A stretch of 46,185 nt of DNA, taken from the IMG/VR virus record IMGVR_UViG_3300045988_161343. One strand, 5' to 3'. The notes under the pieces are model-generated. The model was not told the DNA's origin, did no database searches, and saw only the letters and a list, made by a program, of their open reading frames with translations. This stretch comes from a virus. Below are positions 4,156 through 41,968 of the stretch, one piece after another. Every line of letters begins with the position of its first letter. Position 1 is the stretch's first letter. The position numbers and the translations under genes were made by a program.

Positions 4156-5505
4156 ATGGATATTAATCACTGTGGTTATATTGTAAAAGTTAAAGAACTG
4201 CGGGCACACCCTAATGCAGACAAGCTCTACATCGCAACTTTCTTCGGCAATGATACTTGCGTTTCCATTGATACGCAGGTTGGCGATATTGGTGTCTACT
4301 TCCCCTGCGACCTCCAGCTTTCCCTCGAATTTTGCATCGCCAATCATCTGTGCCGCAAGCTTCCCGATGGGACTGCTGACACTGGTTATATGGAAGTAGA
4401 TAAGCGTAATATTACTGCTATCAGACTGCGTGGCGAACGTTCCGATGGTCTGTATCTGCCGATTAGCTGTTTCAATTATTGCTATGACGATAATGCAAGT
4501 GCTTATCTAAAGGTGGGCGACATTATTAACGAAGTTAATGGTCATCCTATCTGCAATAAGTATATTCCGCGTACTAGAAAGCAGAATAATACCAATAACT
4601 CTAATGTGAGCAAGACTCGCAAGCATAAGGATCCGATTGCTCCTCTGTTCAAAGAGCATATTGATACTGCCCAGCTTGCTTATAACCTTAATGCATTCAA
4701 GCCTGGCGACCTTATTGAAATTACTCGTAAGCTCCATGGTACTTCTGCACGAATCGGCTATCTGCCTGTTCTCAAGGGCTATAAGCGTACTCTGTGGGAT
4801 AAGATTACTCGTAAAGATGGCAAACCTATCTATCAGTATGATTACATTGACGGCACTCGCCGCACTCTGCTAGTCAGCTATGATGGCGGCTTCTATGGTT
4901 CTAATGAATTCCGTAAGCATTTCCATGAAGCAATTAAAGGCAAGCTGCATGAAGGCGAAACCTGTTATGCTGAAATTATTGGTTTTACTGATGATGGCGT
5001 GCCGATTATGGGTTCTGTTTCCAATAAGAAAACCAACGATAAGGCATTCATTAAGCAATATGGCGATATGACTACCTTCTCTTATGGCTGCGACCCTACT
5101 GGTGTTACTGCTCCGAAGAACGATTTTTATGTTTATCGTATGACTCTAACTACTCATGATGGTTATACTGTGGAATATTCTCCTGAATATACTCGGTATC
5201 GTTGTGAACAGATGGGCGTAAAATTCGTTCCTGTTGAATGGCGTGGCTATATCCCCGAGCATCCGGCATCTGAAAATGATGATACTATCACCGCAGGCGA
5301 ATGGATTATGAATAAGGCAGAACAGTATTATGATGGTCCTGAGCCGATTGATCCGCGACATGTGCGTGAAGGCGTCGTTGTGCGTCTGGTTGATAAGCCT
5401 TCTTTCACAGCATATAAAATCAAGAATTTCTCCTTCAAGTGTATTGAAGGAATTGCGGTTGCTGATACTACTCCAGTAGATGAAACAATCGCGGAGGAAC
5501 TGTGA
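4156..5505 (+). CDS. ATP-dependent RNA ligase (Rnl2/Rnl5-like nucleotidyltransferase) with an N-terminal tRNA-binding OB (Myf/EMAP-type) domain, 449 aa
   Basis: N-terminus HPNADKLYIATFFGND...VSIDTQVGDIGV...RGERSDGLYLPISCF matches the tRNA_bind fold. Ligase motifs: I RKLHGTS (KxHG), IV EGVVVR, V YKIKN. Confidence 0.7.
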   Translation: MDINHCGYIVKVKELRAHPNADKLYIATFFGNDTCVSIDTQVGDIGVYFPCDLQLSLEFCIANHLCRKLPDGTADTGYMEVDKRNITAIRLRGERSDGLYLPISCFNYCYDDNASAYLKVGDIINEVNGHPICNKYIPRTRKQNNTNNSNVSKTRKHKDPIAPLFKEHIDTAQLAYNLNAFKPGDLIEITRKLHGTSARIGYLPVLKGYKRTLWDKITRKDGKPIYQYDYIDGTRRTLLVSYDGGFYGSNEFRKHFHEAIKGKLHEGETCYAEIIGFTDDGVPIMGSVSNKKTNDKAFIKQYGDMTTFSYGCDPTGVTAPKNDFYVYRMTLTTHDGYTVEYSPEYTRYRCEQMGVKFVPVEWRGYIPEHPASENDDTITAGEWIMNKAEQYYDGPEPIDPRHVREGVVVRLVDKPSFTAYKIKNFSFKCIEGIAVADTTPVDETIAEEL

Positions 5506-6116: not shown

Positions 6117-6443
6117 ATGAAACGTTATGTTGTATATCATCAGGAATGGCAAGATGATGCTGAAATCGAAACTGTATGTGATACAAAAGCAGACGCTGAA
6201 GAATTTCTCCTTGCCCTTATTGAAGGACAAGATTATGAAAACTTCTTCTATGAATATGTAGCAAGAATTTGTATCCAAAACCCTATGCAAGCTTATCTTG
6301 ATACTTGGAAAAATCGCACTGAATGGCATAATGAATACCTAAATTATGCGTCCTATAAGAAGAAAAACTCTTTAAGTATGGAAGCATATATCCTTTATGA
6401 TTTATCTATGAGTTATTATATTTGTGAAGTGGAGGGCTATTAA
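6117..6443 (+). CDS. Paralog 1 of a tandem small-protein family (C.T.ADAEE.L motif), 108 aa
   Basis: VCDTKADAEEFLLALIEG motif shared with the next four genes. Confidence 0.55.
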   Translation: MKRYVVYHQEWQDDAEIETVCDTKADAEEFLLALIEGQDYENFFYEYVARICIQNPMQAYLDTWKNRTEWHNEYLNYASYKKKNSLSMEAYILYDLSMSYYICEVEGY

Positions 6444-15318: not shown

Positions 15319-15736
15319 CATGAGTAAGGTAATGTCTGGTCCAGGCAATCCTTTTGTATTTAATCAAATGGATTTTTTAATGGGTCGTATTAAAAAAGAA
15401 GACACATTAAATAAATACCATGCGCTACTTAAATCGGGTAGAGTTATTCTTGAAGACTATTGGTGTTGGCATGATCATAAATGGTATAAAGCATTAATTA
15501 AATGCCTTAACGATTTTTATATTGTAATTACTACTGAAGAAGATGTAATTAGTATAGAAAGAATAGAAAATCCAACAGTAGATTCTATCTATATGGAATA
15601 TATATTGGCAAGTAGAATGAGAGGAGATGAAATTGATGGCGACTCTATATATGATGTGCGGCTTGAGTGCAAATGGAAAGACTACATTCGCGAAATCCTT
15701 CGCAAAGATGAATCACATCCGATATGTAAACCCTGA
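15305..15736 (+). CDS. Hypothetical protein, 143 aa
   Basis: ORF track. Confidence 0.45.
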   Translation: MEEFNMSKVMSGPGNPFVFNQMDFLMGRIKKEDTLNKYHALLKSGRVILEDYWCWHDHKWYKALIKCLNDFYIVITTEEDVISIERIENPTVDSIYMEYILASRMRGDEIDGDSIYDVRLECKWKDYIREILRKDESHPICKP

Positions 15737-16172
15737 TGAATTGTATGCTGTCTTTAATGGTGATGAATGCAACCGTAGTCATAAGTTCGAAGTTTGGCAG
15801 ACATTGTATCAGATTGTGCATTGTGCAGAACTGGATGGTGTAGATATTATTATTGACACTAACTGTTTGACTCTTGGACAGAGAGAAGAAATCAGAAGCC
15901 GTTTCCCCCATTTCGATAGTTATCAGCTTATGGTTATTATCGCCAGCGTAGAAAATTCAAAGGAATGGAACTCCAAGAGACATAGAGTAGTGCCGCAGCA
16001 GGAACTTGAACGGCAGGCACGTATTGTAGACTGGCCTAATTTGACTGACCATTATAATGGTTGGAATAATATTAGATATTATTACAATGATGGTTCTCTG
16101 TTTACTAAATATCGTGAAATCTATGATGGCGAAGACCATGACTTGCGACAGGAGAAGGAGGATAATAAATAA
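15636..16172 (+). CDS. P-loop kinase, polynucleotide-kinase-like (AAA_33/Pnk kinase family), about 178 aa
   Basis: Walker A CGLSANGKTTFAK close to the N-terminus, then D..TN..L...R pattern. Start is ATG 15636 (SD AGGAGA) or ATG 15651. Confidence 0.5.
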   Translation: MATLYMMCGLSANGKTTFAKSFAKMNHIRYVNPDELYAVFNGDECNRSHKFEVWQTLYQIVHCAELDGVDIIIDTNCLTLGQREEIRSRFPHFDSYQLMVIIASVENSKEWNSKRHRVVPQQELERQARIVDWPNLTDHYNGWNNIRYYYNDGSLFTKYREIYDGEDHDLRQEKEDNK

Positions 16173-22111: not shown

Positions 22112-22328
22112 ACTGGTTGAAAAAACTGATTGGAATAAATATCATAAAGAAGATATTCTCGATTTGGTTAAAGAGCATCCTGAACTTCTGAATATGACAC
22201 CTGTTCAGCTTCGTACCAGAGCCAGAGATTTGGATTGGGATGCTGATGGATATATGAATAAGGTTAATAGCCTTGAAAATGAAGCGTCTTTGACTAGAGA
22301 TTTAATTGAAATCATGTATGGAGAGTGA
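22089..22328 (+). CDS. Hypothetical protein, 79 aa
   Basis: ATG 22089 in frame with track ORF 21930; the earlier part overlaps the upstream gene. Confidence 0.4.
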   Translation: MNIAELIKLVEKTDWNKYHKEDILDLVKEHPELLNMTPVQLRTRARDLDWDADGYMNKVNSLENEASLTRDLIEIMYGE

Positions 22329-22333
22329 TAATT

Positions 22334-23140
22334 ATGAATTACCATTCAGATAAATGGGTTATGGATAAGGTAGAAACTCATTTAGAAGCAGCTAATGTTA
22401 AAGGAGAAAATTGGGTTAGTTTAATGGCTTATGGTAGCCAGAACTATGGTCTTGATACTCAATCGTCTGATGTAGATACCCGACTTATTGTTCTTCCTTC
22501 ATTTGAAGATATTGTACTAAATAAGAAGCCAGTATCTTATACCAAGATTCTTCCTAATGATGAACACATTGATTTTAAAGATATTCGTTTGTTCATTGAT
22601 TGTTTGAAGAAACAGAATATGGCATATCTTGAATGTATCTTCACACCTTATAAAATGGCATCAAGCGTGTATTGGAATGAGTGGCAGGTACTGCTTAATG
22701 AGCGTGAAGCTATTGCACGTTATAATCCTTACAAGGCAGTTAAGACAATGAAGGGTATTGCTATGGAAAAATATCATGCAATGGAACATAGATATCCTAC
22801 TAAAACTCATCTGATTGATACATATGGTTATGATAGTAAGCAGCTTATGCATTTGCTTCGTATTGAACAGTATCTTGGACGTTATATTGATGGGGTTAAA
22901 TATGCAGATTGCCTTCAGGCTCCAATGGGTGATTATCTTCTTGATGTAAAAAATTATCACTATGATCTTGAAACTGCACGAATTATAGCAAATACTGCTA
23001 TTAATAATATTACAAGAGTAGCTGATGATTATTGTTCTAAGACCAAGGATGAAGGTAATGAAGAACTTGAAGATTTTATGAATAAGATTGTTTATCTTAC
23101 TATGAAAAAAAGAATTGTAAAGGAAATGTTAAATGTCTGA
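22334..23140 (+). CDS. Pol-beta-superfamily nucleotidyltransferase, about 268 aa
   Basis: GSQNYGLDTQSSDVDTRLIV fits the hG[GS]x9-13D.[DE] NTase signature. Confidence 0.5.
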   Translation: MNYHSDKWVMDKVETHLEAANVKGENWVSLMAYGSQNYGLDTQSSDVDTRLIVLPSFEDIVLNKKPVSYTKILPNDEHIDFKDIRLFIDCLKKQNMAYLECIFTPYKMASSVYWNEWQVLLNEREAIARYNPYKAVKTMKGIAMEKYHAMEHRYPTKTHLIDTYGYDSKQLMHLLRIEQYLGRYIDGVKYADCLQAPMGDYLLDVKNYHYDLETARIIANTAINNITRVADDYCSKTKDEGNEELEDFMNKIVYLTMKKRIVKEMLNV

Positions 23141-23337: not shown

Positions 23338-24117
23338 ATGTTCAAGGACTATCTGATTAGAGGCGATTGTCATGGTGATTTCACATGGCTTAATGCAAGA
23401 ATGTTTAGAATTTTAAATCCAAAAGACTATGCAATTATTATCCTTGGAGACTGCGGTTTTAATACTGGTAGTGCATTCAGAGATAATATGAAGAAAGAAT
23501 ATGCAAGCCAGTTTGGATATTTTATTTATTGCGTGCATGGCAATCATGAAGTACGTCCTGAAAATGTTGAAGGTATAGAGCGTATTTGGGATAGCAATGT
23601 TCAGGCTAATGTATGGTATGAGCCGACTCACCCTCTGATTAGATATTTTGATAATTACGGGATTTATTATCTTAAAACCGAAGATAGAGAATATCGTACA
23701 TTAGTTATTGGTGGTGCTTATTCTGTTGATAAATATTATCGTCTTAAAAACAATCTGCTTTGGTGGGAAGATGAACAATTAAGTGATAAAGAAAAAGTTG
23801 ATGCTGAAATGCTTATTCGACAAACTAATAAGCATTTTGATCTTGTACTATCACACACCTGCCCTTATTCTCTTAGGCCAGTTGATAAATTTCTTTCAGT
23901 AGTAGATCAATCTACTGTAGATACCTCTATGGAAGAATGGCTTGAAGAAATTAAGAATATGATTACATATGATGTATGGCTCTTTGGTCATTATCATTGT
24001 GATAGATTTATTAATAAGCATAATATTATCTTTTTTAATTGTATTGACCCTTTGGAGGATATTTTTCTCTGGCATGATAAAATGGATGATGCTGTAAATA
24101 ATATTGACCGCTTTTAA
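23338..24117 (+). CDS. Calcineurin-like metallophosphoesterase, 259 aa
   Basis: GDCHGD ... ILGDCGFN ... VHGNHE motifs. Confidence 0.6.
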   Translation: MFKDYLIRGDCHGDFTWLNARMFRILNPKDYAIIILGDCGFNTGSAFRDNMKKEYASQFGYFIYCVHGNHEVRPENVEGIERIWDSNVQANVWYEPTHPLIRYFDNYGIYYLKTEDREYRTLVIGGAYSVDKYYRLKNNLLWWEDEQLSDKEKVDAEMLIRQTNKHFDLVLSHTCPYSLRPVDKFLSVVDQSTVDTSMEEWLEEIKNMITYDVWLFGHYHCDRFINKHNIIFFNCIDPLEDIFLWHDKMDDAVNNIDRF

Positions 24118-31404: not shown

Positions 31405-31686
31405 ATGAAGAAGATTATAATTCCTCAAGAAGAAGTAAATTATCTTTAGAAATTAAATTATGAAATTGAAGCTAGAAAAAATTTATGTCAATTTTTAATT
31501 AGACAAAATATTAGAAATAAAGCTTTTAATGATTATCATAATGAGTATATAGAATTATTTGCTGAATATGAATTAGCTAAATTAGAATTAGAAAATAATT
31601 ATATCAAACCAGAAATTGGGAATCAAACTTGCAATTGGAATTTAGATTTTTATACAAATGAGGTAATTATTGATGTTATTTCCTAA
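31405..31686 (+). CDS. Small protein, 93 aa with one TAG, first gene of the rSAM cluster
   Basis: SD AAAGGA; continuous frame ending at TAA; overlaps the rSAM start. Confidence 0.4.
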
Positions 31687-33013
31687 AATAAGCCACATTC
31701 CTGAAGAATTTTCTGATTTTATAGGTCGTTTATATCCTGAAGATTGTTTAAATTCTTAGTCTGTATTTACATTAACATTTTAGGTTACAGATGATTGTTG
31801 TTTAAATTGTACTTATTGTTATCAAGGGCATAAAGGTAAACATAAATTATCTTTTGAAACAGCTAAACAGATGATTGATTAGATATTAACCAGAGATAAT
31901 AAAATTATTGGTTATATTGATTCTTATAAAATACCAGGAGTAATAATAGAATTTATAGGTGGAGAGCCATTTTTAGAAATTGAATTAATTGATTAGATTA
32001 CTGATTATTTTATTAATAAAATGATTGAATTGCGGCATCCTTGGGCTACTAAATATAAAATTTCAATTAGTTCTAATGGTATTTTATATTTTGAACAAAA
32101 AGTACAAGAGTATATTAAAAAAAATAATGAAAATTTAAGTTTATCAATTTCTATTGATGGAAATAAAAAATTACATGACGCTTGTAGAGTTTTCCCTGAT
32201 GGTAGTGGTAGTTATGATAAAGCATTGTCTGCCGCATTACATTATAGCCATAATTATAATAAATGGATTGGGAGTAAAATGACTATCTCTCCATTTAATA
32301 TAGATTATTTATATGACGCTGTTTTAGAAATGATAAACAATGGTTATAGTCAAATCAATCTAAATTGTGTGTATGAAAAAGGTTGGGAACTTAACCATGC
32401 CACTACATTATATTATTAGTTAAAAAAAATTGCTGATTATTTATTAAATAATGATTTGTGGGATAAAGTTTATTTATCTATTTTTTATATTAATGATGGA
32501 AGTAAAAATTTATCTAATGATAATTGGTGTGGCGGGAATGGTCGTATGTTAGCCTTAAATTGGAAAGGTAAATATTATCCATGTTTACGTTATATGGAAG
32601 ATAGCATAAGTAATCAGCCAGAATATTATATTGGAGATATTTATTAGGGAATAGGCCAAGATAATTTAACCATCAATAGATTAAAAGATTTATCTGAAAT
32701 AACAGTTATTAGTCAATCTCCTCAAGAATGTTTAGATTGTGAAATTTCTGGAGGATGCTCTTGGTGTACAGCTTATAATTATCAAGAAACAGGTAATGTT
32801 AATAAAAGAGTTACTTATATTTGTGATATGCATTATGCTACAGTTCTAGCTTCTTTATATTATTTAAATTCTATTTTAAAAAAAATAAACTCGAATAAAC
32901 GATTTAAATTTAATGGAGATATGGAAAAAGCATTAAAAATTATCTCTTAGGATGAATATAATATAATAAAGGAGACAATGACAAATGAAAATAGGAACGA
33001 CAATAACTTCTGA
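31673..33013 (+). CDS. Radical SAM enzyme with C-terminal SPASM/twitch domain (anSME / RiPP-maturase-like), 446 aa with about 7 in-frame TAGs; fragmented in the track
   Basis: CCLNCTYC = CxxxCxxC cluster, GGEP motif. C-terminal Cys clusters CGGNGRMLAL...YYPCLRY and CLDCEISGGCSWCT. Frame is continuous from ATG 31673 to TGA 33011-33013 only with TAG as sense. Confidence 0.65.
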
Positions 33014-33635
33014 TAGATTCAATGAATTAAAGAAAAAAATAAAGGCTGAATGTTTACGTCGTAAATATACCGGTAGTGTAAGTTCATATGGAGGGACTTC
33101 TTATGATTATACTACTTAGCCTGATAATGGAAAAGTTATTTCAAAAGAACACATAACAAAACTGGTAGAACCTATGGCGGCAATAAATATTGAAAATCAG
33201 AATGAAAATATAAATGTTATTAAAGATGATGATTTAAGTACATTAGAGGCAAAAATTACAGCTTATCAAGCTATGGGATTAACTGATTCGAATACTGGAT
33301 GTTCAGCTTATTGCACTGGATTATGTTCTACCAGTTGTAGCGAAAGTTGTGGAGTACAATGTTAGGAAACTTGTTTAGGTAGTTGTAAGAATACTTGCCA
33401 AGGAGGCTGTCAAAACACTTGCAGAGGCGGATGTCAAAGCAGTTGTAGTGGTAGCTGTAGCGGATGTAGTGGTTCTTGCTCAGGTGGATGCTATACAGGA
33501 TGTAGTGGATGCAGTGGTAGCTGTACAAGACATTGTGCTAACGATTGTACTGGATTGTGTGGAGGAAGTTGTTCAGGTTTATGTACAAGCTGTACTGGCA
33601 CATGTAGTGGCACAGGTAGAAATGAACCATTATAA
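32985..33635 (+). CDS. Cysteine-rich repeat peptide, 216 aa: ~100-aa leader followed by ~27 tandem C-x3-C units; precursor-like
   Basis: SD AAGGAGA 9 nt upstream. Core is CSAYCTGLCSTSCSESCGVQC(TAG)ETCLGSCKNTCQGGCQNTCRGGCQSSCSGSCSGCSGSCSGGCYTGCSGCSGSCTRHCANDCTGLCGGSCSGLCTSCTGTCSG; two in-frame TAGs. Confidence 0.55.
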
Positions 33636-33753
33636 TTTAAAAATATTTATCGAAAATACATATAACTGTAAGATATATTATATGTATCTTATACAAGATA
33701 ATATTTTATTTTGTATAAGTAATTATAAGAATATAAATTTTCAAAAATATAAT

Positions 33754-34323
33754 ATGGATATTTAGATTTTATCTGTTTATGAATATTTATGTCAAAAATA
33801 TATTTTACATAAGGATATATTAAAACAATATAAAGGTATAGAATTATATAAAATTATGGAAATTCAAGATAAAATTTTTATTAATAGATATAAATTATTA
33901 TTGTAGATTATTAATAATAATTATAATTTTGATAATTAGTTAATATACACTGATTTTAATAATTTTAATTTTGAACAAAATATTAGTTATATAAATTATT
34001 GTTTAAAATTGCTATTTAATAATTTTAAAAAAATAGATAAACAATTTTGGAAAATTTTAGATTAGATTTATTTTTTAATTAATGGTAAAACTAATTTATT
34101 TTTATTGTTGGGAAATTTTTATTTGAATAAAAGTAATTTATAGCAATTTACTGAAGAAATAAAAAAAATTCCTGGAATTAAAGAATAGCTCTCTTTTAGT
34201 TATACAGCTTTAAATTTAGCTATTGAAATTGATAAAGTTGCAGAAAATAAAAATTATCTTAATGAATTAATTGAAATTATTGATAATCATTCACAAGAAA
34301 AAATTTATAAATTTGATATTTAA
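33754..34323 (+). CDS. Very AT-rich hypothetical protein, about 189 aa, with 6 in-frame TAG and no TAA or TGA
   Basis: In an AT-rich stretch, 570 nt free of TAA and TGA in one frame is unlikely by chance. The N-terminal part of track ORF 33448-33765 is in the same frame. Confidence 0.4.
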
Positions 34324-34378
34324 TAAAAATTAATATATAATATATATACAAAATAAAGAAAATAAAGACTTTAACAGC

Positions 34379-34491
34379 AAAAAATGGACAGTAAATCCGT
34401 CGCGAATGCTACGCAGGTTCGAATCCTGCCCTCCCCACCATTATATGGCGGAGGTAGGGAAGCGGTTAAACCCAGCGGAACCAAACCAAAT
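34379..34491 (+). ncRNA. Promoter-driven tRNA-like element with circularly permuted arrangement (T-arm + 3' acceptor + CCA, 6-nt linker, then 5' acceptor + D-arm), flanked by the inverted repeat AAAGACTT/AAGTCTTG
   Basis: gcaggttcgaatcctgc cctcccc a cca ttatat g gcggagg ta ggg aagcggttaaa ccc a gcgga. Acceptor strands are complementary with one C-C mismatch. The candidate anticodon stem tccgt/gcgga is split across the ends. Confidence 0.25.
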
Positions 34492-34585
34492 AAGTCTTGT
34501 TTGAATAAAATAATTATTTGATTTTTAATAAAAAATATTATATAATATTTATATAAAAAGACTTTTACAGCAACTTAAACTTTTT

Positions 34586-34660
34586 TCCGTGGTCGAATAA
34601 CTGGATAATTCATCAGAGTTAATTCTGAAAATAAGGATTCGAATTCCTTCCTTGGAGCCA
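34586..34660 (+). tRNA. tRNA-like gene with canonical acceptor, D and T arms, CCA, and a 6-nt anticodon loop (gTTAat); own promoter, flanked by AAAAGACTTTT/AAAAGTCTT inverted repeats
   Basis: tccgtgg tc gaat aactggata attc a tcaga gttaat tctga aaat aagga ttcgaat tcctt ccttgga g cca. Confidence 0.35.
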
Positions 34661-34742
34661 AGTATAAAAAGTCTTGGGTAAATTTCTTAATTTGAAAAAA
34701 TTAAAAAAATATAATATAATATATAAGTAATCAATAAGAAAT

Positions 34743-34891
34743 CAAATAAATGCTCTCGTAGCTCAATTGGTCAGAGCCGGCGACTTATCCAAGATTAGTT
34801 TAAATGGCAAAATAGTCTATGCGCAAGAAAGATGTAAGTTCAAATCTAACATCTTGGGCCAAATCGCCAGATGTGGGTTCAAATCCCGACG
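34743..34891 (+). tRNA. tRNA carrying a ~73-nt tRNA-like insertion inside the anticodon loop; anticodon after excision is ambiguous (UAU, UAA or CAA depending on junction)
   Basis: Outer: gctctcg ta gctc aattggtca gagc c ggcga cttat[...]aa tcgcc agat gtggg ttcaaat cccga cgggagc a cca. Insert 34780-34852 is ccaagat...gtaag ttcaaat ctaac atcttgg g cca (acceptor-like stem + T-arm + CCA). Confidence 0.45.
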
Positions 34892-34926
34892 GGAGCACCA
34901 TATTCCAATAGAAAGGAATTAAAATA

Positions 34927-35166
34927 ATGAAGTTGACAAATATTAAGCAGGTTGAAGATTTTATCGCAGCAGTTAATCGCGCACATAGTAATGTATGGCT
35001 GGTTAGTCCACAAGGTGATAGATATAATATGAAATCTGCACTTTCACAGTATATCGCGCTTGGCGCATTACTTGGTCAGCATGGTGATGAATTGGAACTT
35101 TTCTGTGATAGTAAGCAAGATGAAGGTTTGTTTATTGAATTTTTTGTTCGTCACCCTGAAGTTTAA
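34927..35166 (+). CDS. Small hypothetical protein inside the tRNA array, 79 aa
   Basis: ORF track; SD AAAGGAATTAAAATA ATG. Confidence 0.45.
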   Translation: MKLTNIKQVEDFIAAVNRAHSNVWLVSPQGDRYNMKSALSQYIALGALLGQHGDELELFCDSKQDEGLFIEFFVRHPEV

Positions 35167-35234
35167 TTGAAAAATTAAAAAAAATATTATAAAATATATA
35201 TACAAAATAAATGAGAAATAAATTCTCATTTGTA

Positions 35235-35312
35235 TGGGACAGTAGCTTACGAGGTCGGAGCATTGGTCTGAAAAACCAAAGGATGGAGGCTCGATACCTC
35301 CCTGTCCCACCA
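35235..35312 (+). tRNA. tRNA-Phe (anticodon GAA)
   Basis: gggacag ta gctt acgaggtcg gagc a ttggt ctgaaaa accaa agggat ggagg ctcgata cctcc ctgtccc a cca. Preceded by a promoter element and the aatgagaa...ttctcatt hairpin. Confidence 0.7.
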
Positions 35313-35390
35313 ATTGGTCTTATACATGGGGTTTCCGATTTGAACTAGGCAGATTAGTCACCTGCCGTTGGCAATAGACCAATTAAAAAT
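35313..35390 (+). ncRNA. Structured ~76-nt element closed by a 9-bp stem (AATTGGTCT/AGACCAATT) with an internal ggcag-attagtcac-ctgcc hairpin; not a canonical tRNA
   Basis: Immediately 3' of tRNA-Phe. Perfect 9-bp terminal helix. Function unknown. Confidence 0.25.
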
Positions 35391-35563
35391 AAACTGAGGC
35401 AAAGGGAAATCGGGTTTTAATGTATAGCTATAAAGAAATTTTATAGTTAGCTATGATGAACTTCATAGCAAAATCCTCTTGTAATCAAGCTAATTGGGAG
35501 AGGGGTAGCGCGGGAACGGGGAGAAGCGCGCTATAAAAGGTGAAATACTTCTTTCCACCATAT

Positions 35564-35639
35564 GCCGGTGTAGCCGAATGGCATAGGCGAATGATTTAGG
35601 ATCATTAATCTGAAGGTTCGAGTCCTTTCACCGGTACCA
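35564..35639 (+). tRNA. Class-I (short variable arm) tRNA with anticodon UAG; formally Leu(CUA-reading) but lacks the long variable arm of Leu tRNAs
   Basis: gccggtg ta gcc gaatggcata ggc g aatga tttagga tcatt aatct gaagg ttcgagt ccttt caccggt a cca. Confidence 0.55.
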
Positions 35640-35721
35640 ACAGTGAAGTAGTAGCTATATTCACTATAATCAAGGCTCGGTGGTTGGTGGCTCCATCGTT
35701 ATATAAATAAGCCATATATAT

Positions 35722-35792
35722 TACTTCTTGGTGTAATGGAAGCATGCTGCCTGAAAGAGGCGGAGGTATTGGTTCAATTCCAATAGAAGGAT
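35722..35792 (+). tRNA. Atypical tRNA-like gene (T-arm attgg-ttcaatt-ccaat). Anticodon arm is ctgcc-tgaaaga-ggcgg without U33, or a 6-bp stem with a 5-nt loop; no encoded CCA
   Basis: tacttct tg gtg taatggaag cat g ctgcc tgaaaga ggcgg aggt attgg ttcaatt ccaat agaagga t. One A-G mismatch in the acceptor. Confidence 0.3.
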
Positions 35793-36142
35793 TAATTAAA
35801 GCTGGGAAATAATAGTCGCCCATAACTAATTATTTAATATAGGACTATTATTAAAGGTTATTTAAGTTAAAGAAACGCGGTTGAAGTTATTACTTACTTG
35901 ATTATAAAATAACATGACCGCAAGACGAGTGTTTGAAGCTTGTCTATAAACAAATTCTTCATATGTTGTCTTTTTATACTTACTCTTTGGTTGTTTCTTG
36001 ACATATAAGTAAAAACGGAAAGGGAGTTAAAGGTTTAGCTATAAAACCGGTTTGTTTTTAATAAGATTTTTAAAATTAGGTGACAAAATCTTATTTGAGT
36101 GATGCTGCTCAAGAGGGTCCGGAACCTCTAAAATGCGTATAT

Positions 36143-36275
36143 GCGCCAGTGGCCAAGTGGTATGGCACCTGCCTTTGTGGGATTGATGTAAGTAGCATTT
36201 TAATGTATTGGTTCAAATCCAATATTCCGCACCATAAGCAGGGCAACGCGGGTTCGATCCCCGCCTGGCGCACCA
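36143..36275 (+). tRNA. tRNA with Gln-like D-arm carrying a 58-nt tRNA-like insertion in the anticodon loop; the residual loop could read UUU, UUG, UAU or CAU depending on junction
   Basis: Outer: gcgccag tg gcc aagtggtat ggc a cctgc cttt[...]taa gcagg gcaac gcggg ttcgatc cccgc ctggcgc a cca. Insert 36177-36234 is gtgggat tg atg-taagtag-cat tttaatgt attgg ttcaaat ccaat attccgc a cca. Confidence 0.45.
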
Positions 36276-36596
36276 GGTCAAGTTTGAGAAATTTCATAGA
36301 GCATCGCTGACGTTAAATGGTTCTTATATGAAAACGCGCAATTAGTATAAGATAGCAAAATTCTCGTAGTTCATCCATTAGAGAACCTTAAAGAGTAATG
36401 GAATAAGATTATATCATGAGAAATTATGTATATAGTTTTATTTAATTTGGTGTTGAACCAAATATTGTGAAATTCAAGCGAGTCTACCTTATTAGCCCTA
36501 CTGTAATAGCCAGTCTAATATGCCCTCCATACCCAGTGAGGATTTTTATAAAAGTCTATTTAATTTTTCTTGGCAGCTTAATTAAATAGACTATAT

Positions 36597-36673
36597 GCGG
36601 GATTAGCTCAGCTGGTTAGAGCGTTTGGTTTACACCCAAGAGGTCATTGGTTCAAATCCAATATCCTGCACCA
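36597..36673 (+). tRNA. tRNA-Val (anticodon UAC)
   Basis: gcgggat ta gctc agctggttag agc g tttgg tttacac ccaag aggtc attgg ttcaaat ccaat atcctgc a cca. Preceded by a 13-bp hairpin at 36555-36595. Confidence 0.75.
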
Positions 36674-36726
36674 ATAAATTTGAAAATTTAAAAAAAATAT
36701 TATATAATAATAAAGGAGATATTTGA

Positions 36727-36900
36727 AATGGCAACTACTAAGAAACCTGCAATTAAAATGGATAGCACAGAGTTGAACGAGTATCTTCTGTTCCGCCGTC
36801 GTAGATCTATTGTTCCGGCCAAGAAAGGTAAGGGTATGGAATATGATAGGGCGAAAGAAAAAGAGAAATCTGAAAAAATGATTTCTGATGAATAAATCGG
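36727..36900 (+). CDS. Small basic protein, 57 aa, within the tRNA array
   Basis: Promoter variant + SD AAAGGAGA; MATTKKPAIKMDSTELNEYLLFRRRRSIVPAKKGKGMEYDRAKEKEKSEKMISDE. Below track cutoff. Confidence 0.4.
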
Positions 36901-36990
36901 GTGTCTCTTTTCGAGAATTTATATAACGCATACTAATAACTTTGGAGTTGCGTCCAACGGTCAGTGAGTAGTTTTCAGGCTGACATTTAT

Positions 36991-37066
36991 CGGGCTGTAG
37001 AGTAATTGGCTAATTCAGAAGCCTTTCACGCTTCAAACCTGGGTTCGAATCCCAGCAGCTCGACCA
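36991..37066 (+). tRNA. tRNA-Glu (anticodon UUC)
   Basis: cgggctg ta gagt aattggcta attc a gaagc ctttcac gcttc aaac ctggg ttcgaat cccag cagctcg a cca. Confidence 0.75.
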
Positions 37067-37074
37067 TATGGTGC

Positions 37075-37151
37075 TATAGTTCAGTTGGCTAGAATGTCGG
37101 ACTGTCTCTCCGAAGGTCAGGGGTTCGAGTCCCCTTAGCATCGCCACATGC
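37075..37151 (+). tRNA. tRNA-Asp (anticodon GUC)
   Basis: ggtgcta ta gttc agttggcta gaat g tcgga ctgtctc tccga aggtc agggg ttcgagt cccct tagcatc g cca. Confidence 0.75.
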
Positions 37152-37247
37152 TTTTTCCTATGTAAACAATTTTGAAACATAGAACTTGATGGAGCGTTCT
37201 ATTAGTCTGATGCCTGCATTAGATTAAGTTTTATAACCATCATATTT

Positions 37248-37321
37248 GGGGACATAGTTTATGGTAGGAAAACGTTGAATTTAATTCAAAATCGAGGGTG
37301 CAATTCCCTCTGGCTCCACCA
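37248..37321 (+). tRNA. Atypical tRNA. The anticodon arm folds either as 5 bp + 5-nt loop or 4 bp + 7-nt loop ATTTAAT (anticodon UUA, ochre-type); assignment unresolved
   Basis: ggggaca ta gttt atggtagg aaac g ttgaa tttaa ttcaa aatc gaggg tgcaatt ccctc tggctcc a cca. One A-G mismatch in the acceptor. Confidence 0.35.
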
Positions 37322-37446
37322 TTTATGAAAGACAATACAGCAATTATAAATTTGCTTTGGGAGCCGTGTGTTGTAGGTTCGAGTCCTACTGTCTGGTCGA
37401 AGATCGGATATAGCGTAATTGGTAGCGCAACGTATAAAAATTGTCT

Positions 37447-37519
37447 TGTTAATATTGCGGGATCGTCAAGTGGTTAAGACACCAGCCTCATAAACTGGTT
37501 ATCATGGGTTCGAATCCCA
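37447..37519 (+). tRNA. tRNA-Met/Ile2-type (anticodon CAU), no encoded CCA
   Basis: tgcggga tc gtc aagtggttaa gac a ccagc ctcataa actgg ttatc atggg ttcgaat cccac tcccgca a. 31-39 is a C-A mismatch. Confidence 0.6.
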
Positions 37520-37729
37520 CTCCCGCAAGAGATACATTAATCAAGCCTCCACGGGGCGTATCTTGGGTAATGCTAATTGATTAAATGAGTATAATTAATA
37601 ATGTTTTATGAAAAGCCCACACAGCAACTTTTAATAGGATAAATAAGAAATTCTGCAAAAATTTTTTAGAGTTGGTTCAAATCCAGCAAATGATTTTAGG
37701 GCTTTGTTAAAATTGTTAAGGAGAAAATA

Positions 37730-37915
37730 ATGAAGTTTAATCCAGGAGATAAGGTCTGGTGTAAGAGGTACGGTAAGGGTAAGTGCCGCAAGGCTGATAA
37801 TAAAGATAATTTTATGACTTATCTTTTCAGATTTTATGATGGCACTTTGATTTGGATGCCGAAACATCTGGCTGAACATTTTGTAAGAGTTCGTTCCACC
37901 GAGGCCACGGTGTGA
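37730..37915 (+). CDS. Small basic protein, 61 aa
   Basis: ORF track; SD TAAGGAGAAAATA ATG. Confidence 0.45.
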   Translation: MKFNPGDKVWCKRYGKGKCRKADNKDNFMTYLFRFYDGTLIWMPKHLAEHFVRVRSTEATV

Positions 37916-38064
37916 ATATAAAGTCCGGTTATAGGAAATCCTGTCATTAGGCGGCAGGCTACCGGTAATCCTTTCTTATATATTTAAATATGTAAGGAAC
38001 AAAAACTATACAATAGATAGAGTTTTTACGCCTTGGCGCAATGCTTGTTTTTTACTATCTATTT

Positions 38065-38165
38065 TTCTATATCTGTTGGGTTGGCTGAGAGGTCGATAGC
38101 GGCTGCCTGCTAAGCAGTTGTCCCTGGAAACGGGGACCAAAGGTTCAAATCCTTTACCCAACGCC
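38065..38165 (+). tRNA. tRNA-Ser (anticodon GCU), class II with long variable arm
   Basis: gttgggt tg gct gagaggtcgat agc g gctgc ctgctaa gcagt tgtccctggaaacggggacc aaagg ttcaaat ccttt acccaac g cca. Confidence 0.75.
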
Positions 38166-38171
38166 ATTATA

Positions 38172-38256
38172 TGTAGGAGTGCCAGAGTGGTCGATTGGGT
38201 TAGTCTCCAAAACTAATTGTAGCTACACGTCCAGGGTTCGAATCCCTTGCTCCTAT
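38172..38256 (+). tRNA. tRNA with anticodon CCA (Trp-type) but an unusually long, 15-nt variable region and a possible 8-bp acceptor stem
   Basis: gtaggag(t) gc ccag agtggtcga ttgg g ttagt ctccaaa actaa ttgtagctacacgtc caggg ttcgaat ccctt gctcctat g. Confidence 0.45.
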
Positions 38257-38659
38257 GCGTTATCAAGTAAGAGCCTTCCCGTGGCGATGATGTTTAAACT
38301 AATCTTACATTAACATACCCCTACTTTCGTATAATACGGTTAAACCTTGTCGAGGGCAAAGACAACAAGGTATTCCTTTCCGCCCCTCATATATTAAGAC
38401 TCATTTTCAGCAAACTTTTGCCTACAAAGGCTCTACAATACTTACTTATCAAATAATAGATGAAAAAGTATAATAAAGAAAATAAAGTATATTTTGAAAA
38501 GTTTTTTCTTTTTAGCTGGTTTAGTAAGCTAAATTCCGCGTTTTTATTTTGGCTTTTCAATGAGTCTTGTTTTTAAAATAATTGGTATCGCTAAGCTTCA
38601 TGGTAATTGTGGCGTATTTAAATCATAGATAGTTAAGGGTCTATAGCCAATTATGATAT

Positions 38660-38748
38660 GCGGAATTAACTTGCCCGGCGGTAAGCCTTGTCTTGAAAAC
38701 AAGTGGTCCTGTGATAGGGATGGGGATCGACACCTCAGTTCCGCGCCA
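38660..38748 (+). tRNA. tRNA-Ser (anticodon UGA), class II, atypical T-loop
   Basis: gcggaat ta a cttg cccggcgg taag c cttgt cttgaaa acaag tggtcctgtgatagggatg gggg... gttccgc g cca. Overlaps spurious track ORF 38653-38901. Confidence 0.5.
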
Positions 38749-38788
38749 CTCGTTTCAAATTCGTTCATTGCATTTCATCCTTTCTATA

Positions 38789-38830
38789 AAGATGGACTGA
38801 TTAGATTAATCAATCCATCTTTTTTTTTAT
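38789..38830 (+). terminator. Rho-independent terminator closing the tRNA array
   Basis: aagatgga-ctgattagattaatcaa-tccatct followed by TTTTTTTTT. Confidence 0.65.
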
Positions 38831-38980
38831 ATATTTTAAAGACAGTAGGTTATAGATTGCTCGGGCCGGCTTGGACCATTAAAACCGAATGCTTAAATTA
38901 AAATTCCATTTAAGAAATTTTCGGTCCAACAGGTATAGAGCAATATAAAATAATTTTAAATATGAAAGGAGAAGGACAAT

Positions 38981-39094
38981 ATGAAAATGTTTATTCTTTC
39001 ATATAAGGGCGGCAAAGATGGCGGCGATATTGACAAAGAAGATACTTCCAAGTCAACAGGCGGCTGGGATGGCGGCTCTATAGATGATGATTAA
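38981..39094 (+). CDS. Small Gly/Asp-rich protein, 37 aa, first gene of the late block
   Basis: SD AAAGGAGAAGG; MKMFILSYKGGKDGGDIDKEDTSKSTGGWDGGSIDDD. Confidence 0.35.
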   Translation: MKMFILSYKGGKDGGDIDKEDTSKSTGGWDGGSIDDD

Positions 39095-39111
39095 AGAAAG
39101 GAGAACACGAG

Positions 39112-40185
39112 ATGGCTGAAATTATTAAATTAAGACGCGGTAAATCAACTAGTTGGTCTAAAAAGAATATAGTCCTGGCAGCTGGTGAAATCGGCGTAGA
39201 ACTTGATACACATTAGATTAAAGTCGGCGATGGTTCAACCCCTTGGAATGAACTATCTTATGTAGGCGGAACTAAAGTTGTTAATGTTCAAGAATACACT
39301 GATAATCCAGCAGTTGTAGATGACGTGCCTTATCAATCTATTGATGTAGCATTTGTGAAGGCTCCAGCAGGAAGTACAATTCGTCTTAATGCTAACTTTG
39401 ATAACAGTGTTTCTATTGATAAAGCATTGACTATTGAATTAAATGGTAATGATATTATCAATAATGAAAAAACTCCAATAGATATCAAAGCAAATGGCGA
39501 TTTAACTATTAAGGGCCAAGGCACTATTGAATGTAATAAGAATGAAAATGCCGCAGTTTTTAATAATGGTAATATTACTATTAATAATGGTAAATTACAA
39601 CGTACCACTGATGTATCAGGCAATGGCTATTATACTGCTGTTAATCATGGTACTATGACAATCAATGGTGGCATGTTTATGAGTGGTGGCGAATTTTCTA
39701 GCATGATTGAAAATGGCTATTGGGATTATCACGCTGGTAATACTACTAATGGCTATGTTCAAGGCCAAAATGCTGAAATGCCTACATTAACTATTAATGA
39801 TGGTACATTCGCTGGTGGTTTATATGCTATAAAAAATGATGATAATGCTGTTTTAAATATTAATGGCGGCACATTCTATAATACTATTCTTGCTAATGGT
39901 AAGTCAATAACTATCACTGATGGGTATTTTGAAAATAGTAAGCCAAGTCAAGGCGAATATAATTTTTATCTTCGTAAATTAAGTGAAGATTTAAATCCTC
40001 AAAATACATATATTAGTGGCGGTACATTTATTACTGCACAAGATAAGAATTTCAAAGTTGAGGGCGATCCTCATATTGAAATTAGCGGTGGCCGTTTTAA
40101 TAGAGAATTAGATCCTTCTTATCTAGCTCCTGGCTATAGACAAGTACTTGTCAATGGCTTCTATACTGTCTAGAAGGAGGAATAA
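39112..40185 (+). CDS. Tail spike / fibre protein with conserved N-terminal anchor domain and a parallel beta-helix (pectate-lyase-like) repeat region, 357 aa, one in-frame TAG
   Basis: MAEIIKLRRGKSTSWSKKN...ELDTH(TAG)IKVGDGSTPWNEL is paralogous to the N-termini of 40189, 40727 and 44704. Repeats INGGMF, INDGTF, INGGTFY, ISGGTF, ISGGRF. Track starts at 39325 (GTG) after the TAG. Confidence 0.6.
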
Positions 40186-40188
40186 TCT

Positions 40189-40704
40189 ATGGCTGATATC
40201 ATCAAGTTCAAAAGAGGTCGATCAACTACATGGCGTGAAAAGAACTTATTGCTTAAGGATGGCGAGCCTGGATTTGAATTAGATACTCATAAACTGAAAA
40301 TTGGTGATGGTAAAACCTTATGGAATGATTTACCATATATCGGTGGCGAAAGTGGTACAATTGATCTTCCTGATAATGTAATGGAATTTTTAGGCACAGT
40401 TGATGCACTTCCAGCTACTGCTGAAGATGGAGAAATGTGTATTTATGATGGTAAATTATATATTTACGATGGTAAATGGACAACTACAGAAACTTCTTCT
40501 TCAGCACAAAATTCTTTCAATTCTTTAGTAGATGCAATTAACTATATTACTTAGCATAATTGTGTTGGTCAAATTGTATCTATTTTTTAGAATAATAAAT
40601 GGTTGCCTTATATTGTAGATGTAAATAATAATCTTGTACCTATTCAATATGGAGAAGATCATTATGATATTCTTAATGGCGGCAACGCAAATACTCTTAA
40701 TTAA
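40189..40704 (+). CDS. Tail fibre paralog with the same N-terminal domain, 171 aa, two in-frame TAGs
   Basis: MADIIKFKRGRSTTWREKN...ELDTHKLKIGDGKTLWNDL. Continues through TAG at 40552 and 40588 to TAA at 40702-40704. Confidence 0.55.
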
Positions 40705-40726
40705 TTTTATAGGAGGAAAATAATTT

Positions 40727-41950
40727 ATGGCTGAAAATATTCTTAATACTCGCATTCAAGTATTAAATGATACGGCTGAAGCTCTTAAAGCAAAAGGTAG
40801 TGCAGTCCCAAAAGCTGGTGAAATTGTTTACGAGAACGATACTCGTAAAATGAAAATCGGTGATGGTACTACTACTCTTGAAAACTTAAAATATTTTGGT
40901 GGCGAAGCCGCTCAAAATTTTGAAGCTATTCCAACAGGTGAAGAAACTGACGTTCAGGCTATTACTCGTATTGTAGCTTCTGCAGAACTTCACAATGGCG
41001 ATACTGCTATTGTAAAGCGTGTTATTACTGGCGATAAGACTTCTTATACTGCTTACGTATATGACGGTGAATGGAAAGCTATGGATGGCAATTATCGTGC
41101 TGATAATGTTTATTTTGATGATGACATTACTTATACTGTTGCTATTGGCACTTTAGCTAAACCATCTGGTTCTGCTAAATTTGCAGCTAAAGGTAAGAGC
41201 GTTGAACAGGTCCTTTCTACCTTAATGGCCAAGGAAGCTAATCCTTCTAAGTCTGATCCTGCTGTTAGTTTCAGCTCTACTAGCGGACTTGGTACATTTG
41301 AAATTGGCACGAAGAAGAATTTAACATATACAGCAGCTCTATCTGCTGGTAGTTATACTTATGGTCCAGCTACTGGTATTACAGCTCAGAGTTGGAGTGT
41401 AAAATGCACTGGTGTTGAAGATGTCCTTGCTACTGCTACTGGTTCTTTCGATAATGTTGTTGCTGAAGCAACAGCTAAAAAAATTACTGCAACCGCAACT
41501 TATGGCGACGGCACTATTCCTAAGACCAATCTAGGTAATTCTTATCCTGCTAGCCAGATTAAGGCAGGCTCAGCATCTAAAGATAGCAATGTCCTTTAGG
41601 GTGTCCGTCATATGTTCTATGGTCCTATAACTACTGATGCAGCTCTTGATAGTACTACTATTCGTGGATTAAAACATGAAGCTGCTAGTAAAAAGCCTAT
41701 TACTACATTTGGTGCAGGTGCTGGAGCAAAGAAAGTTGTTATTGCTTGTCCTGCTGGATATAATGTAAGTAAGGTTCTTATGCCTAGTGCTATGAATGCT
41801 GATGCTACTGCTAATTTTGTAAAGCAAGCTGGTACTGTTAATGTTGAGGGCGCTGAAGGATATACTGCAGCTCCTTATACTGTTTGGGTATATTAGCCTG
41901 CTGCAATTGATAGTACTGAAACTTATGCTGTCACAATTGGTTAATTTATA
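40727..41950 (+). CDS. Tail fibre protein, 407 aa, two in-frame TAGs (joins track ORFs 40727 and 41612)
   Basis: N-terminal ...GEIVYENDTRKMKIGDGTTTLENL domain; same frame through TAG 41597 and TAG 41894 to TAA 41948-41950. Confidence 0.55.
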
Positions 41951-41968
41951 AAGGAGGAATAATATAAT

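Follow-up and report, generated by a model that had tools for sequence, protein, structure and literature searches.

tRNA-shaped inserts in the anticodon loops of two phage tRNA genes and their probable place in a mobile intron family

The IMG/VR virus record IMGVR_UViG_3300045988_161343, a stretch of 46,185 nt referred to below as the window, comes from a human-gut phage. It is rich in AT (34% GC), has nearly all of its genes on the + strand and carries a tRNA array at 34752-38258. Two tRNA genes of this array are interrupted in the anticodon loop by short inserts which themselves resemble tRNAs. There is good reason for confidence that these inserts are genuine mobile introns that mimic tRNAs and are precisely excised, and on sequence comparison they are best read as members of a mobile intron family that have no open reading frame (ORF). 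With regard to their removal, the best explanation overall, which has close to an even chance of being right, is that such ORF-less, tRNA-shaped mobile introns are taken out by the enzymes that process tRNA ends, together with a ligase encoded by the phage.

Boundaries and tRNA-like fold of the two inserts

A sequence-only reading of this region had described a tRNA-like insert within the anticodon loop of a tRNA gene at 34743-34891, and a second gene of the same architecture at 36143-36275. In its default mode, ARAGORN predicts nine tRNAs in the window and none at 34752-34900 or 36143-36275. When run with intron search, which had been suggested as a check, it recovers both interrupted genes, with inserts of 73 and 58 nt, and the Rfam tRNA model matches over 34752-34897 with 42.7 bits, so that the interruption of a tRNA by a tRNA-like insert is upheld. 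The outcome that had been named as telling against it, two ordinary adjacent tRNAs, is not what ARAGORN finds, the insert being nested within the tRNA. The coordinates of the first gene had to be corrected by 9 nt, and those of the second were exact. The parts of the two genes are as follows, with a slash for each predicted splice site.

34752..34788, + strand: 5' exon of tRNA-Ile(UAU), 37 nt; its last base is the third anticodon base (loop CTTAT/)
34789..34861, + strand: intron 1, 73 nt, tRNA-like (Rfam tRNA when searched alone; covariation; family rule)
34862..34900, + strand: 3' exon of tRNA-Ile(UAU), 39 nt (/AA TCGCC ... ACCA)
36143..36176, + strand: 5' exon of tRNA-Lys(UUU), 34 nt; ends after the second anticodon base (loop CTTT/)
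36177..36234, + strand: intron 2, 58 nt, tRNA-like, no anticodon arm (Rfam; boundaries from contig L001 versus L004)
36235..36275, + strand: 3' exon of tRNA-Lys(UUU), 41 nt (/TAA GCAGG ... ACCA)

The boundaries are set by the comparison of alleles. The ortholog of the second gene in contig L001 is an uninterrupted tRNA-Lys(UUU) (4873-4947) with the loop CTTTTAA, and that of L004 (3800-3932) carries a 58-nt insert, CTTT-(GTGAGAT..CTCGCACCA)-TAA, the end of which is also written ATCTCGCACCA. The exons of the intron-less and the interrupted gene differ by one base, and their comparison leaves only one choice of boundaries for the tRNA-Lys insert. A 735-nt HNH insert occupies the identical site of the same gene in L015 and L025. 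Similarly, a tRNA-Glu(UUC) gene is intron-less in L003 and L015 (TTTTCAT) and carries an 863-nt insert in L020, TTTTC-(GTTAGAT...ATTTAACACCA)-AT, which follows the same rule, from its own +1 to its own CCA. As for the first gene, five phage tRNA-Ile(UAU) genes share its D arm, its anticodon arm (GGCGA CTTATAA TCGCC) and its variable loop, and no Trp-type allele was found in a scan that admitted an Ile-type or a Trp-type spliced loop. These comparisons show each predicted intron to begin with base 1 of its own 7-bp acceptor stem and to end with the A of its own 3' NCCA.

Excision according to this rule yields a canonical 76-nt tRNA-Ile(UAU), with the insert at position 36/37, and a canonical 75-nt tRNA-Lys(UUU), with the insert at 35/36. 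The predicted spliced junctions are ..GGCGACTTAT/AATCGCC.. for tRNA-Ile and ..CCTGCCTTT/TAAGCAGG.. for tRNA-Lys, the corresponding 30-mers being GAGCCGGCGACTTATAATCGCCAGATGTGG and GGCACCTGCCTTTTAAGCAGGGCAACGCGG. The identities given by ARAGORN, Trp(CCA) and Met(CAU), were rejected as an arbitrary pick among equivalent boundaries, the intron-less alleles giving Ile-UAU and Lys-UUU.

The elements that had been named in the first gene are all present, namely the acceptor stem GCTCTCG/CGGGAGC, the D arm, the anticodon stem GGCGA/TCGCC and the T arm, as well as the 7-bp terminal stem (CCAAGAT/ATCTTGG), the TTCAAAT loop and the terminal GCCA of the insert. Intron 1 is thus a full cloverleaf, in which the terminal stem is the acceptor stem, followed by a D arm with a G18G19-type loop (GTTT-AAATGGCA-AAAT), a stunted remnant of an anticodon arm (TCT-ATGCGCA-AGA), a T arm (GTAAG-TTCAAAT-CTAAC), the discriminator G and CCA. 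Intron 2 consists of an acceptor stem (GTGGGAT/ATTCCGC), a D-like hairpin (ATGT-AAGTA-GCAT), a T arm (ATTGG-TTCAAAT-CCAAT), the discriminator A and CCA. Searched alone, intron 1 matches the Rfam tRNA model (RF00005) with 33.1 bits (E = 5e-6, over 34789-34858) and intron 2 with 30.4 bits (E = 2.3e-5, over 36177-36231), both above the gathering score of 29 bits. Thermodynamic folding of the inserts is unremarkable (z-scores of -0.9 to -1.8), and it is therefore comparative data that carry the case for tRNA likeness. Eight variants of intron 1, an intron that occupies two different tRNA-Ile scaffolds, were compared: at three of the seven acceptor pairs both bases change, and every cell remains paired.

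These Rfam scores and the CCA ends would also be expected of a nested tRNA that takes part in decoding. Nevertheless, both inserts fail the criteria for a decoding tRNA (5-bp anticodon stem, 7-nt loop, U33, purine at 37): intron 2 has no anticodon arm, and that of intron 1 has a 3-bp stem, the loop AUGCGCA and a C at position 37. Neither insert is called as a tRNA by ARAGORN, and neither is, by its structure, predicted to be able to decode. Two adjacent tRNAs are at odds with the unambiguous nesting, and an assembly artefact is excluded because the same nested genes recur in independent IMG/VR and ENA human-gut assemblies. Whether as a decoding tRNA, a tandem pair or an artefact, an explanation of this kind is extremely improbable.

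A further question is whether the inserts could be small self-splicing or self-cleaving RNAs of a new kind that need no protein endonuclease. They are small, highly structured and conserved, and intron 1 has invariant segments, such as TATGCGCAAG, to which no role is assigned. Group I introns have a P3-P8 catalytic core, a length of at least about 200 nt and a detectable match to Rfam Intron_gpI, none of which is seen in inserts of 58 and 73 nt, and no group I intron, hammerhead, twister or HDV-like/theta ribozyme is matched by Rfam in 34300-38600 even at E <= 5; apart from tRNA, no RNA family is significant in this interval. The earlier exclusion of a group I intron thus stands. Moreover, Rfam recognises the inserts as tRNA only; conservation is limited to the tRNA-like framework; the internal region is dispensable and replaceable, being absent in intron 2 and occupied by ORFs of 600-800 nt in relatives; and we know of no tRNA fold that self-splices. 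Self-splicing is therefore regarded as very improbable, and in the lack of a ribozyme core excision would depend on proteins or RNase P. Also in agreement with the sequence-only reading, no bulge-helix-bulge (BHB) motif, that is, two 3-nt bulges on opposite strands with a 4-bp helix between them, was seen on hand inspection of both intron classes found in these arrays (the second class is described below); the splice sites lie at the base of the acceptor helix of the insert, the 5' site abutting the first pair of its 7-bp helix and the 3' site 4 nt past the last pair.

A family of tRNA-shaped introns in phage tRNA arrays

Pattern scans covered IMG/VR, JGI/ENA metagenomes and GTDB genomes and, as had been proposed for a check, looked for the same insert family in related genomes, where it recurs in gut-phage contigs. 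The same architecture is found in at least 24 distinct introns of such contigs, in tRNA-Ile, Lys, Glu, Gly, Asn, Thr and Arg. The further copies are all on phage-like contigs, mostly of 100-230 kb and several of them labelled human gut, and three are in Clostridia-labelled bins of metagenome-assembled genomes (MAGs). The boundary rule was applied mechanically: from a T arm, an upstream 7-mer was sought that pairs 7/7 with the 7 nt after the T arm, the segment was deleted together with 4 more nt, and the product was submitted to ARAGORN without introns. A canonical tRNA was restored in 27 distinct cases, and the scan of GTDB added three more nested cases, including a tRNA-Arg(UCU) interrupted at 35/36. 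The intron positions are as follows.

Ile-UAU: 36/37
Lys-UUU: 34/35 and 35/36
Glu-UUC: 36/37
Gly-UCC: 35/36
Asn-GUU: 35/36
Thr-UGU: 35/36

A control of the tail length with ARAGORN was uninformative, odd loop sizes being tolerated, and a geometric test was used instead, which assumes just a 7-nt mature loop. It gives a 4-nt tail in 28/28 genuine cases and scattered values otherwise. In the alignment of 24 distinct introns, compensatory changes are seen at 10 of the 12 stem pairs, 97.6% of the cells are paired, and the covariation score is 0.81, compared with 0.25 for shuffles and no more than 0.21 when partners are slid; these figures are weakened by the fact that most alignment rows had been selected for 7/7 acceptor pairing, although selection did not extend to the tail or to the 3' strand of the T stem. 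Within the tail, C74 is present in 24/24 introns, C75 in 21/24 and A76 in 23/24, and the discriminator is free (G, A, T or C). Between the anticodon stem and the 5' site there are 3, 4 or 5 nt, depending on the gene. As far as can be read from these alignments, both predicted splice sites are shown to be set relative to the helix of the intron, not to the outer tRNA.

A 65-nt member with an ACAA tail is found at 3645-3784 of L035 and 1299-1438 of L078. ARAGORN places it in a tRNA-Pro, a call that was set aside; array position and helix register lead to a provisional assignment of the host gene as tRNA-Thr(UGU). No intron-less allele of this gene was recovered.

The long members of the family have an ORF in place of the anticodon arm. 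In L015 and L020 it encodes an HNH endonuclease according to Pfam, as it does in L115 judging by motifs seen by eye in the translation. The intron of L042 encodes a GIY-YIG endonuclease (motifs by eye), which shares a C-terminal DNA-binding segment with the HNH proteins. The only interruptions of these endonuclease ORFs are in-frame TAG codons. Shortening is also seen, the 158-nt intron of L099 being a deletion derivative of an 847-nt intron of the L042 type in the same tRNA-Gly gene. Furthermore, alleles with and without an intron at one exact site are known for tRNA-Lys (L001/L004/L015) and tRNA-Glu (L003/L015 versus L020), the tRNA-Lys gene occurring in three states, intron-less, with 58 nt and with the 735-nt HNH insert. 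Neither window copy has an endonuclease ORF; the 58-nt insert resembles the ends of L015-type introns and the 73-nt insert those of L020-type introns. Endonuclease-bearing relatives at the same sites and intron-less alleles together suggest a spread by homing followed by loss of the ORF.

No close relatives of the array were found among cultured phages by blastn, and tblastn with the intron HNH protein gave distant homologues only. The best of these in a cultured phage, with 34% identity, is in Bacillus phage SDFMU_Pbc (OQ884030.1, about 36950-37720). There, the HNH ORF lies within a free-standing tRNA-like frame, in place of the anticodon arm, with the acceptor stem TGTCGTA/TACGACA, a D arm and the T arm GTAGG-TTCGAGT-CCTAC. 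This element lacks a CCA and does not lie within another tRNA.

Intron 2 has sequence in common with a resident tRNA. The array of the window contains the following gene.

36597..36673, + strand: tRNA-Val(UAC), which shares with intron 2 an identical 19-nt stretch (ATTGGTTCAAATCCAATAT) made up of the T arm and its neighbouring bases

In L002, a chimera at 5361-5437 begins as tRNA-Val(UAC) and, across the T arm that both have in common, continues as the 3' portion of intron 2; the orphaned 3' exon of tRNA-Lys follows in the roughly 45 nt after it. The arrangement is that of a Lys gene destroyed by recombination between intron and resident tRNA. A different, uninterrupted tRNA-Lys(UUU) is located just upstream of the chimera.

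This locus is relevant to the view that no splicing takes place, the tRNA genes having been killed by a selfish element, or the locus giving rise to tRNA halves and a free tRNA-like small RNA with a role of its own, for instance as a decoy for host defences that target tRNAs. The destroyed Lys gene of L002 speaks in its favour, as do the alternative uninterrupted tRNA-Lys(UUU) at the same array position in L002, L020 and L023 and the fact that splicing is itself deduced from sequence. Furthermore, tRNAs of the Lys(UUU) and Glu(UUC) type are the classic targets of anticodon nucleases. Dead genes, on the other hand, would not be expected to keep exons that in all copies are undamaged and canonical and give back a loop of exactly 7 nt, with differences of 0-1 nt between interrupted and intron-less exons. 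The two interrupted genes are the only ones for tRNA-Ile(UAU) and tRNA-Lys(UUU) in the window, as judged by ARAGORN in default mode and with intron search, and AAA is its commonest Lys codon (44.7 per 1000). As the family has in addition been maintained across many phage lineages, the absence of splicing appears improbable.

Candidate enzymes and a possible route of removal

An RNA-repair gene set is encoded in the window, its members dispersed over it.

4156..5505, + strand: ATP-dependent RNA ligase with N-terminal OB domain, DRB0094/Rnl5-like (phrog_968, E = 9e-64; Pfam RNA_ligase, 32.7 bits)
15627..16172, + strand: PNK-like P-loop kinase (Pfam AAA_33, E = 1.2e-12; phrog_505 polynucleotide kinase, E = 5e-8)
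22325..23140, + strand: RlaP-type nucleotidyltransferase, 'RNA repair pathway DNA polymerase beta family' (Pfam PF10127, E = 1.2e-6; phrog_388)
23338..24117, + strand: metallophosphoesterase (Pfam Metallophos, E = 6.6e-12; phrog_1649)

The ligase, which also matches the PHA02142 OB domain and TIGR02306, both below cut-off, is a candidate for the enzyme that reseals the anticodon loop. The kinase is a candidate for the healing of 5'-OH ends and the metallophosphoesterase for that of 2',3'-cyclic phosphate or 3'-phosphate ends. The ligase is conserved on many gut-phage contigs of 130-200 kb and nearly unchanged on many assemblies of 185-189 kb, so that the phage is common. In a profile scan, the ligase family was present in at least four intron-bearing contigs of different lineages; a scan with a single sequence found it in one contig.

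Removal of the introns could proceed in three steps. In the first, RNase P would cut at +1 of the intron, so that the 5' exon ends in a 3'-OH. As textbooks describe, the RCCA motif of a substrate is bound by the RNA of bacterial RNase P, and both window introns have the features of a textbook substrate: an acceptor/T helix of 7 + 5 bp, thus 12 bp in total, a TTCAAAT loop, a single-stranded GCCA or ACCA and a U at -1. For these reasons RNase P is, by a modest preference, the probable enzyme at the 5' site. In the second step, a 3'-end endonuclease of the RNase Z/BN type would cut just after the CCA of the intron, and the 3' exon would start with a 5'-phosphate; certain RNase Z enzymes cleave immediately after an encoded CCA and require hardly more than the acceptor stem (PMC7479834). 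In the third, the phage ligase at 4156-5505 would seal the resulting nick in the anticodon loop (3'-OH/5'-phosphate), if necessary after healing of the ends by the phage kinase and phosphoesterase. Other end chemistries could be healed too, given the kinase, metallophosphoesterase and RlaP-type protein of the window. Mimicry of processing is supported by the match between tails and arrays, CCA being encoded by 8/11 tRNAs of the window, where the introns end in NCCA, and by 0/4 of the tRNAs examined in the Lak-B5 megaphage, where the introns lack it. The three-step route as a whole is put forward tentatively, its chance being somewhat below even.

Several points weigh against it. Splicing, cleavage sites and end chemistry are all deduced, and the 3' endonuclease is a candidate type of enzyme. 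The RNase Z of Bacillus is strongly inhibited by CCA, 1520-fold with Mg2+ (PMC7479834), and the only hint of a host, the three Clostridia-labelled MAG contigs, leads to the Firmicutes. Tails of three lineages read ACAA or ACCG instead of NCCA, and the additional 5' hairpin of the Lak introns would not be taken off by RNase P acting alone. Furthermore, the ligase resembles the nick-sealing Rnl5 enzymes more closely than T4 Rnl1, and the kinase and phosphoesterase fit the chemistry of cyclic phosphate and 5'-OH ends equally well.

A last point against the route is the presence, in the same arrays, of a second class of introns, of about 450-480 nt, which consist almost entirely of an ORF for a PD-(D/E)XK endonuclease (Pfam PF11645, E about 1e-26) and are closed by a short terminal hairpin; a tRNA-like fold is absent, and a group I core could not be accommodated. 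Three interrupted genes of this class are listed here.

L001 5481-6037: second-class intron in tRNA-Val
L015 4403-4941: second-class intron in tRNA-Asn(GUU), site 36/37 from the intron-less alleles of L013 and L025
L022 592-1122: second-class intron

Because these introns have no tRNA-like fold, a cut-and-ligate route independent of tRNA mimicry must exist in these phages. An RNase III-type staggered cut was considered for this class and rejected, as overhang polarity and flush ends do not fit.

The second class also lends weight to an alternative in which the same mobile introns are excised at both junctions by a protein endonuclease, dedicated or other, of the host or the phage. Such an enzyme would read the helix-loop-helix formed by the anticodon stem and the terminal stem of the intron and leave 2',3'-cyclic phosphate and 5'-OH ends, to be healed and sealed by kinase, phosphoesterase and ligase as in repair by T4 Pnkp and Rnl1; the tRNA shape would then be a relic of the origin of the intron or serve another role, such as stability or processing of the endonuclease mRNA. 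The full heal-and-seal set of the window and the ACAA and ACCG tails are in line with this. Nonetheless, it does not account well for splice sites that are fixed to the tRNA-like helix of the intron and not to the outer tRNA, for a CCA that is kept while the discriminator drifts, or for compensatory changes that maintain the acceptor and T stems, and no EndA-like gene or other candidate endonuclease was seen among the part of the window ORFs that was scanned. Cleavage by such an endonuclease is accordingly judged rather unlikely, and removal by RNase P, 3'-end processing and the phage ligase is preferred.

Comparison with known systems and other features of the array

The closest precedent appears, on sequence comparison, to be the introns of the Lak megaphages, and the defining tests for group I and BHB introns are failed by the window inserts. 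Devoto et al. (2019, Nat Microbiol, PMC6784885) reported "enigmatic introns" in Lak tRNAs, of a kind unreported before in phage tRNAs, one of which "may encode a tRNA", and proposed no mechanism, mobility or boundary rule; full-text searches for literature on the mechanism of such introns gave this study only. Like those of the window, the Lak introns are short inserts in the anticodon loops of tRNAs of TAG-recoded gut phages, without a match in Rfam, with presence/absence polymorphism between genomes and with a tRNA-like module (acceptor-like stem and TTCGAAT-type T arm) beside the 3' splice site. In the two that were parsed, in tRNA-Gly(UCC) and in tRNA-Tyr of Lak-B5, the 3' boundary is about 1-3 nt past the tRNA-like helix. 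They differ by an extra 5' hairpin and an A-rich linker (..AAATTAAA) before the module and by the lack of CCA, whereas in the window the whole intron is the mimic, starting at the acceptor stem and ending in GCCA or ACCA. The family described here also belongs to another phage group and has relatives with homing endonucleases, allelic states and a boundary rule.

To our knowledge, the known tRNA introns of bacteria and their viruses are all self-splicing group I introns, and the splicing of tRNA introns by proteins is considered a feature of archaea and eukaryotes. Group I introns in the anticodon loops of bacterial and phage tRNAs are often associated with homing endonucleases, as in the case of the tRNA-fMet intron and I-Ssp6803I. 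The window family shares with them the site in the anticodon loop, the disruption and restoration of the tRNA, and the occurrence of homing ORFs, ORF loss and intron-less alleles, but its inserts are 58-73 nt long, have no ribozyme core and are framed by a cloverleaf with CCA. With the introns of archaea and eukaryotes, which are recognised through BHB motifs by EndA/Sen enzymes and joined by RtcB or Trl1, they would have in common splicing by proteins, a place in or near the anticodon loop and a cut-and-ligate scheme with a general RNA ligase. They differ by the lack of a BHB motif, by offsets of 0 nt (5') and 4 nt (3') at a 7-bp helix, by sites from 34/35 to 36/37 instead of 37/38 and by their occurrence in bacterial viruses.

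The repair of T4, in which the phage ligase, kinase and phosphatase (Rnl1 and Pnkp) reseal the break made by PrrC in the anticodon loop of tRNA-Lys(UUU), has an analogous gene set in the window. The T4 break is damage inflicted by the host, while a break in the window tRNAs would be programmed, as part of intron removal, and the window ligase is like Rnl5/DRB0094, not Rnl1. Processing signals shaped like tRNAs are known as well. The mascRNA of MALAT1 is cut by RNase P and RNase Z, and both enzymes likewise cut at the tRNA-like t-elements of plant mitochondria (PMC1920247). In these systems, as is proposed here, an embedded tRNA mimic recruits tRNA end-processing enzymes that set RNA ends. They punctuate transcripts and their flanks are not religated, whereas in the window the flanks would be rejoined into a tRNA and the element is mobile.

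The inserts may therefore belong to a distinct class of mobile introns, a proposal whose chances fall a little short of even. Such introns would rely on tRNA mimicry, without a ribozyme core or a dedicated splicing endonuclease, with maturation enzymes for excision, an RNA-repair ligase for rejoining and interchangeable HNH and GIY-YIG ORFs; they would be common in large TAG-recoded human-gut phages and would also explain the Lak introns. Ends that coincide with an embedded tRNA mimic point to a third way of intron removal, by RNase P, 3'-end processing and repair ligases, which offers a testable answer to the question raised in 2019 by the "enigmatic" Lak introns and hints at an additional function of the RNA ligase and repair genes found in many large phages. 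In addition, standard tRNA finders miss such genes or misassign their anticodons (Trp and Met in place of Ile and Lys with ARAGORN), so that inventories of phage tRNAs and analyses of codon usage and recoding are biased.

With regard to recoding, TAG is a sense codon in late genes of the window, and the late and structural genes appear to be TAG-recoded. The ORFs at 31670-34323 and 38560-44668 become much longer when TAG is read through, 41969-44668 giving 899 aa with 4 in-frame TAG codons and 31670-33013 giving 447 aa with 7. No suppressor tRNA(CUA) is found in the window, and one is present in the related arrays of L013, L022 and L027. Such recoding is known in other gut phages (bioRxiv 10.1101/2021.08.26.457843). 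The ORF at 31670-33013 has a CxxxCxxC motif (CCLNCTYCY) and looks radical-SAM-like by eye. It is followed at 32985-33635 by an ORF, also with in-frame TAG, for a repetitive peptide rich in Cys, Gly and Ser (..CSGSCSGCSGSCSGGC..).

Upstream of the interrupted tRNA-Ile gene lies a promoter-like sequence.

34692..34720, + strand: TTGAAA-17-TATAAT, 11/12 consensus matches (a consensus match only), 32 nt upstream of the interrupted tRNA-Ile gene

It is one of three copies of a 30-nt motif, TTGAAAA(A/T)TTAAAAAAA..TAT(A/T)ATA, in the tRNA region (34692-34720, 35167-35195 and 36680-36708), each directly upstream of a tRNA or small ORF. The tRNA array of L013, a related phage contig of 201 kb, contains a RAGATH-33 RNA (137.9 bits, above its gathering score) at 6133-6245, which lies upstream of the interrupted tRNA-Ile gene by about 300 nt.

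The array of the window holds some further unusual elements. A tRNA-like gene at 37248-37318 (Rfam, 47.7 bits), missed by ARAGORN, terminates with ACCA and has on its anticodon stem a loop of 5 nt, UUUAA, which would present a UUA anticodon if the last stem pair opens. At 37365-37435, a weak match to the Y RNA-like family YrlA (29 bits, far under the gathering score of 69) has a T arm (GTAGGTTCGAGTCCTAC) ahead of a D-arm-like segment (TAGCGTAATTGGTAGCGCA) and may be a permuted tRNA-like element. An 86-nt 'tRNA-Trp(CCA)' with a long extra arm at 38173-38258 resembles tRNA-Sec in Rfam (38.8 bits, below the gathering score of 47), and a 71-nt tRNA at 35722-35792 has the anticodon AAA; both are without an encoded CCA, and both are kept in related contigs.

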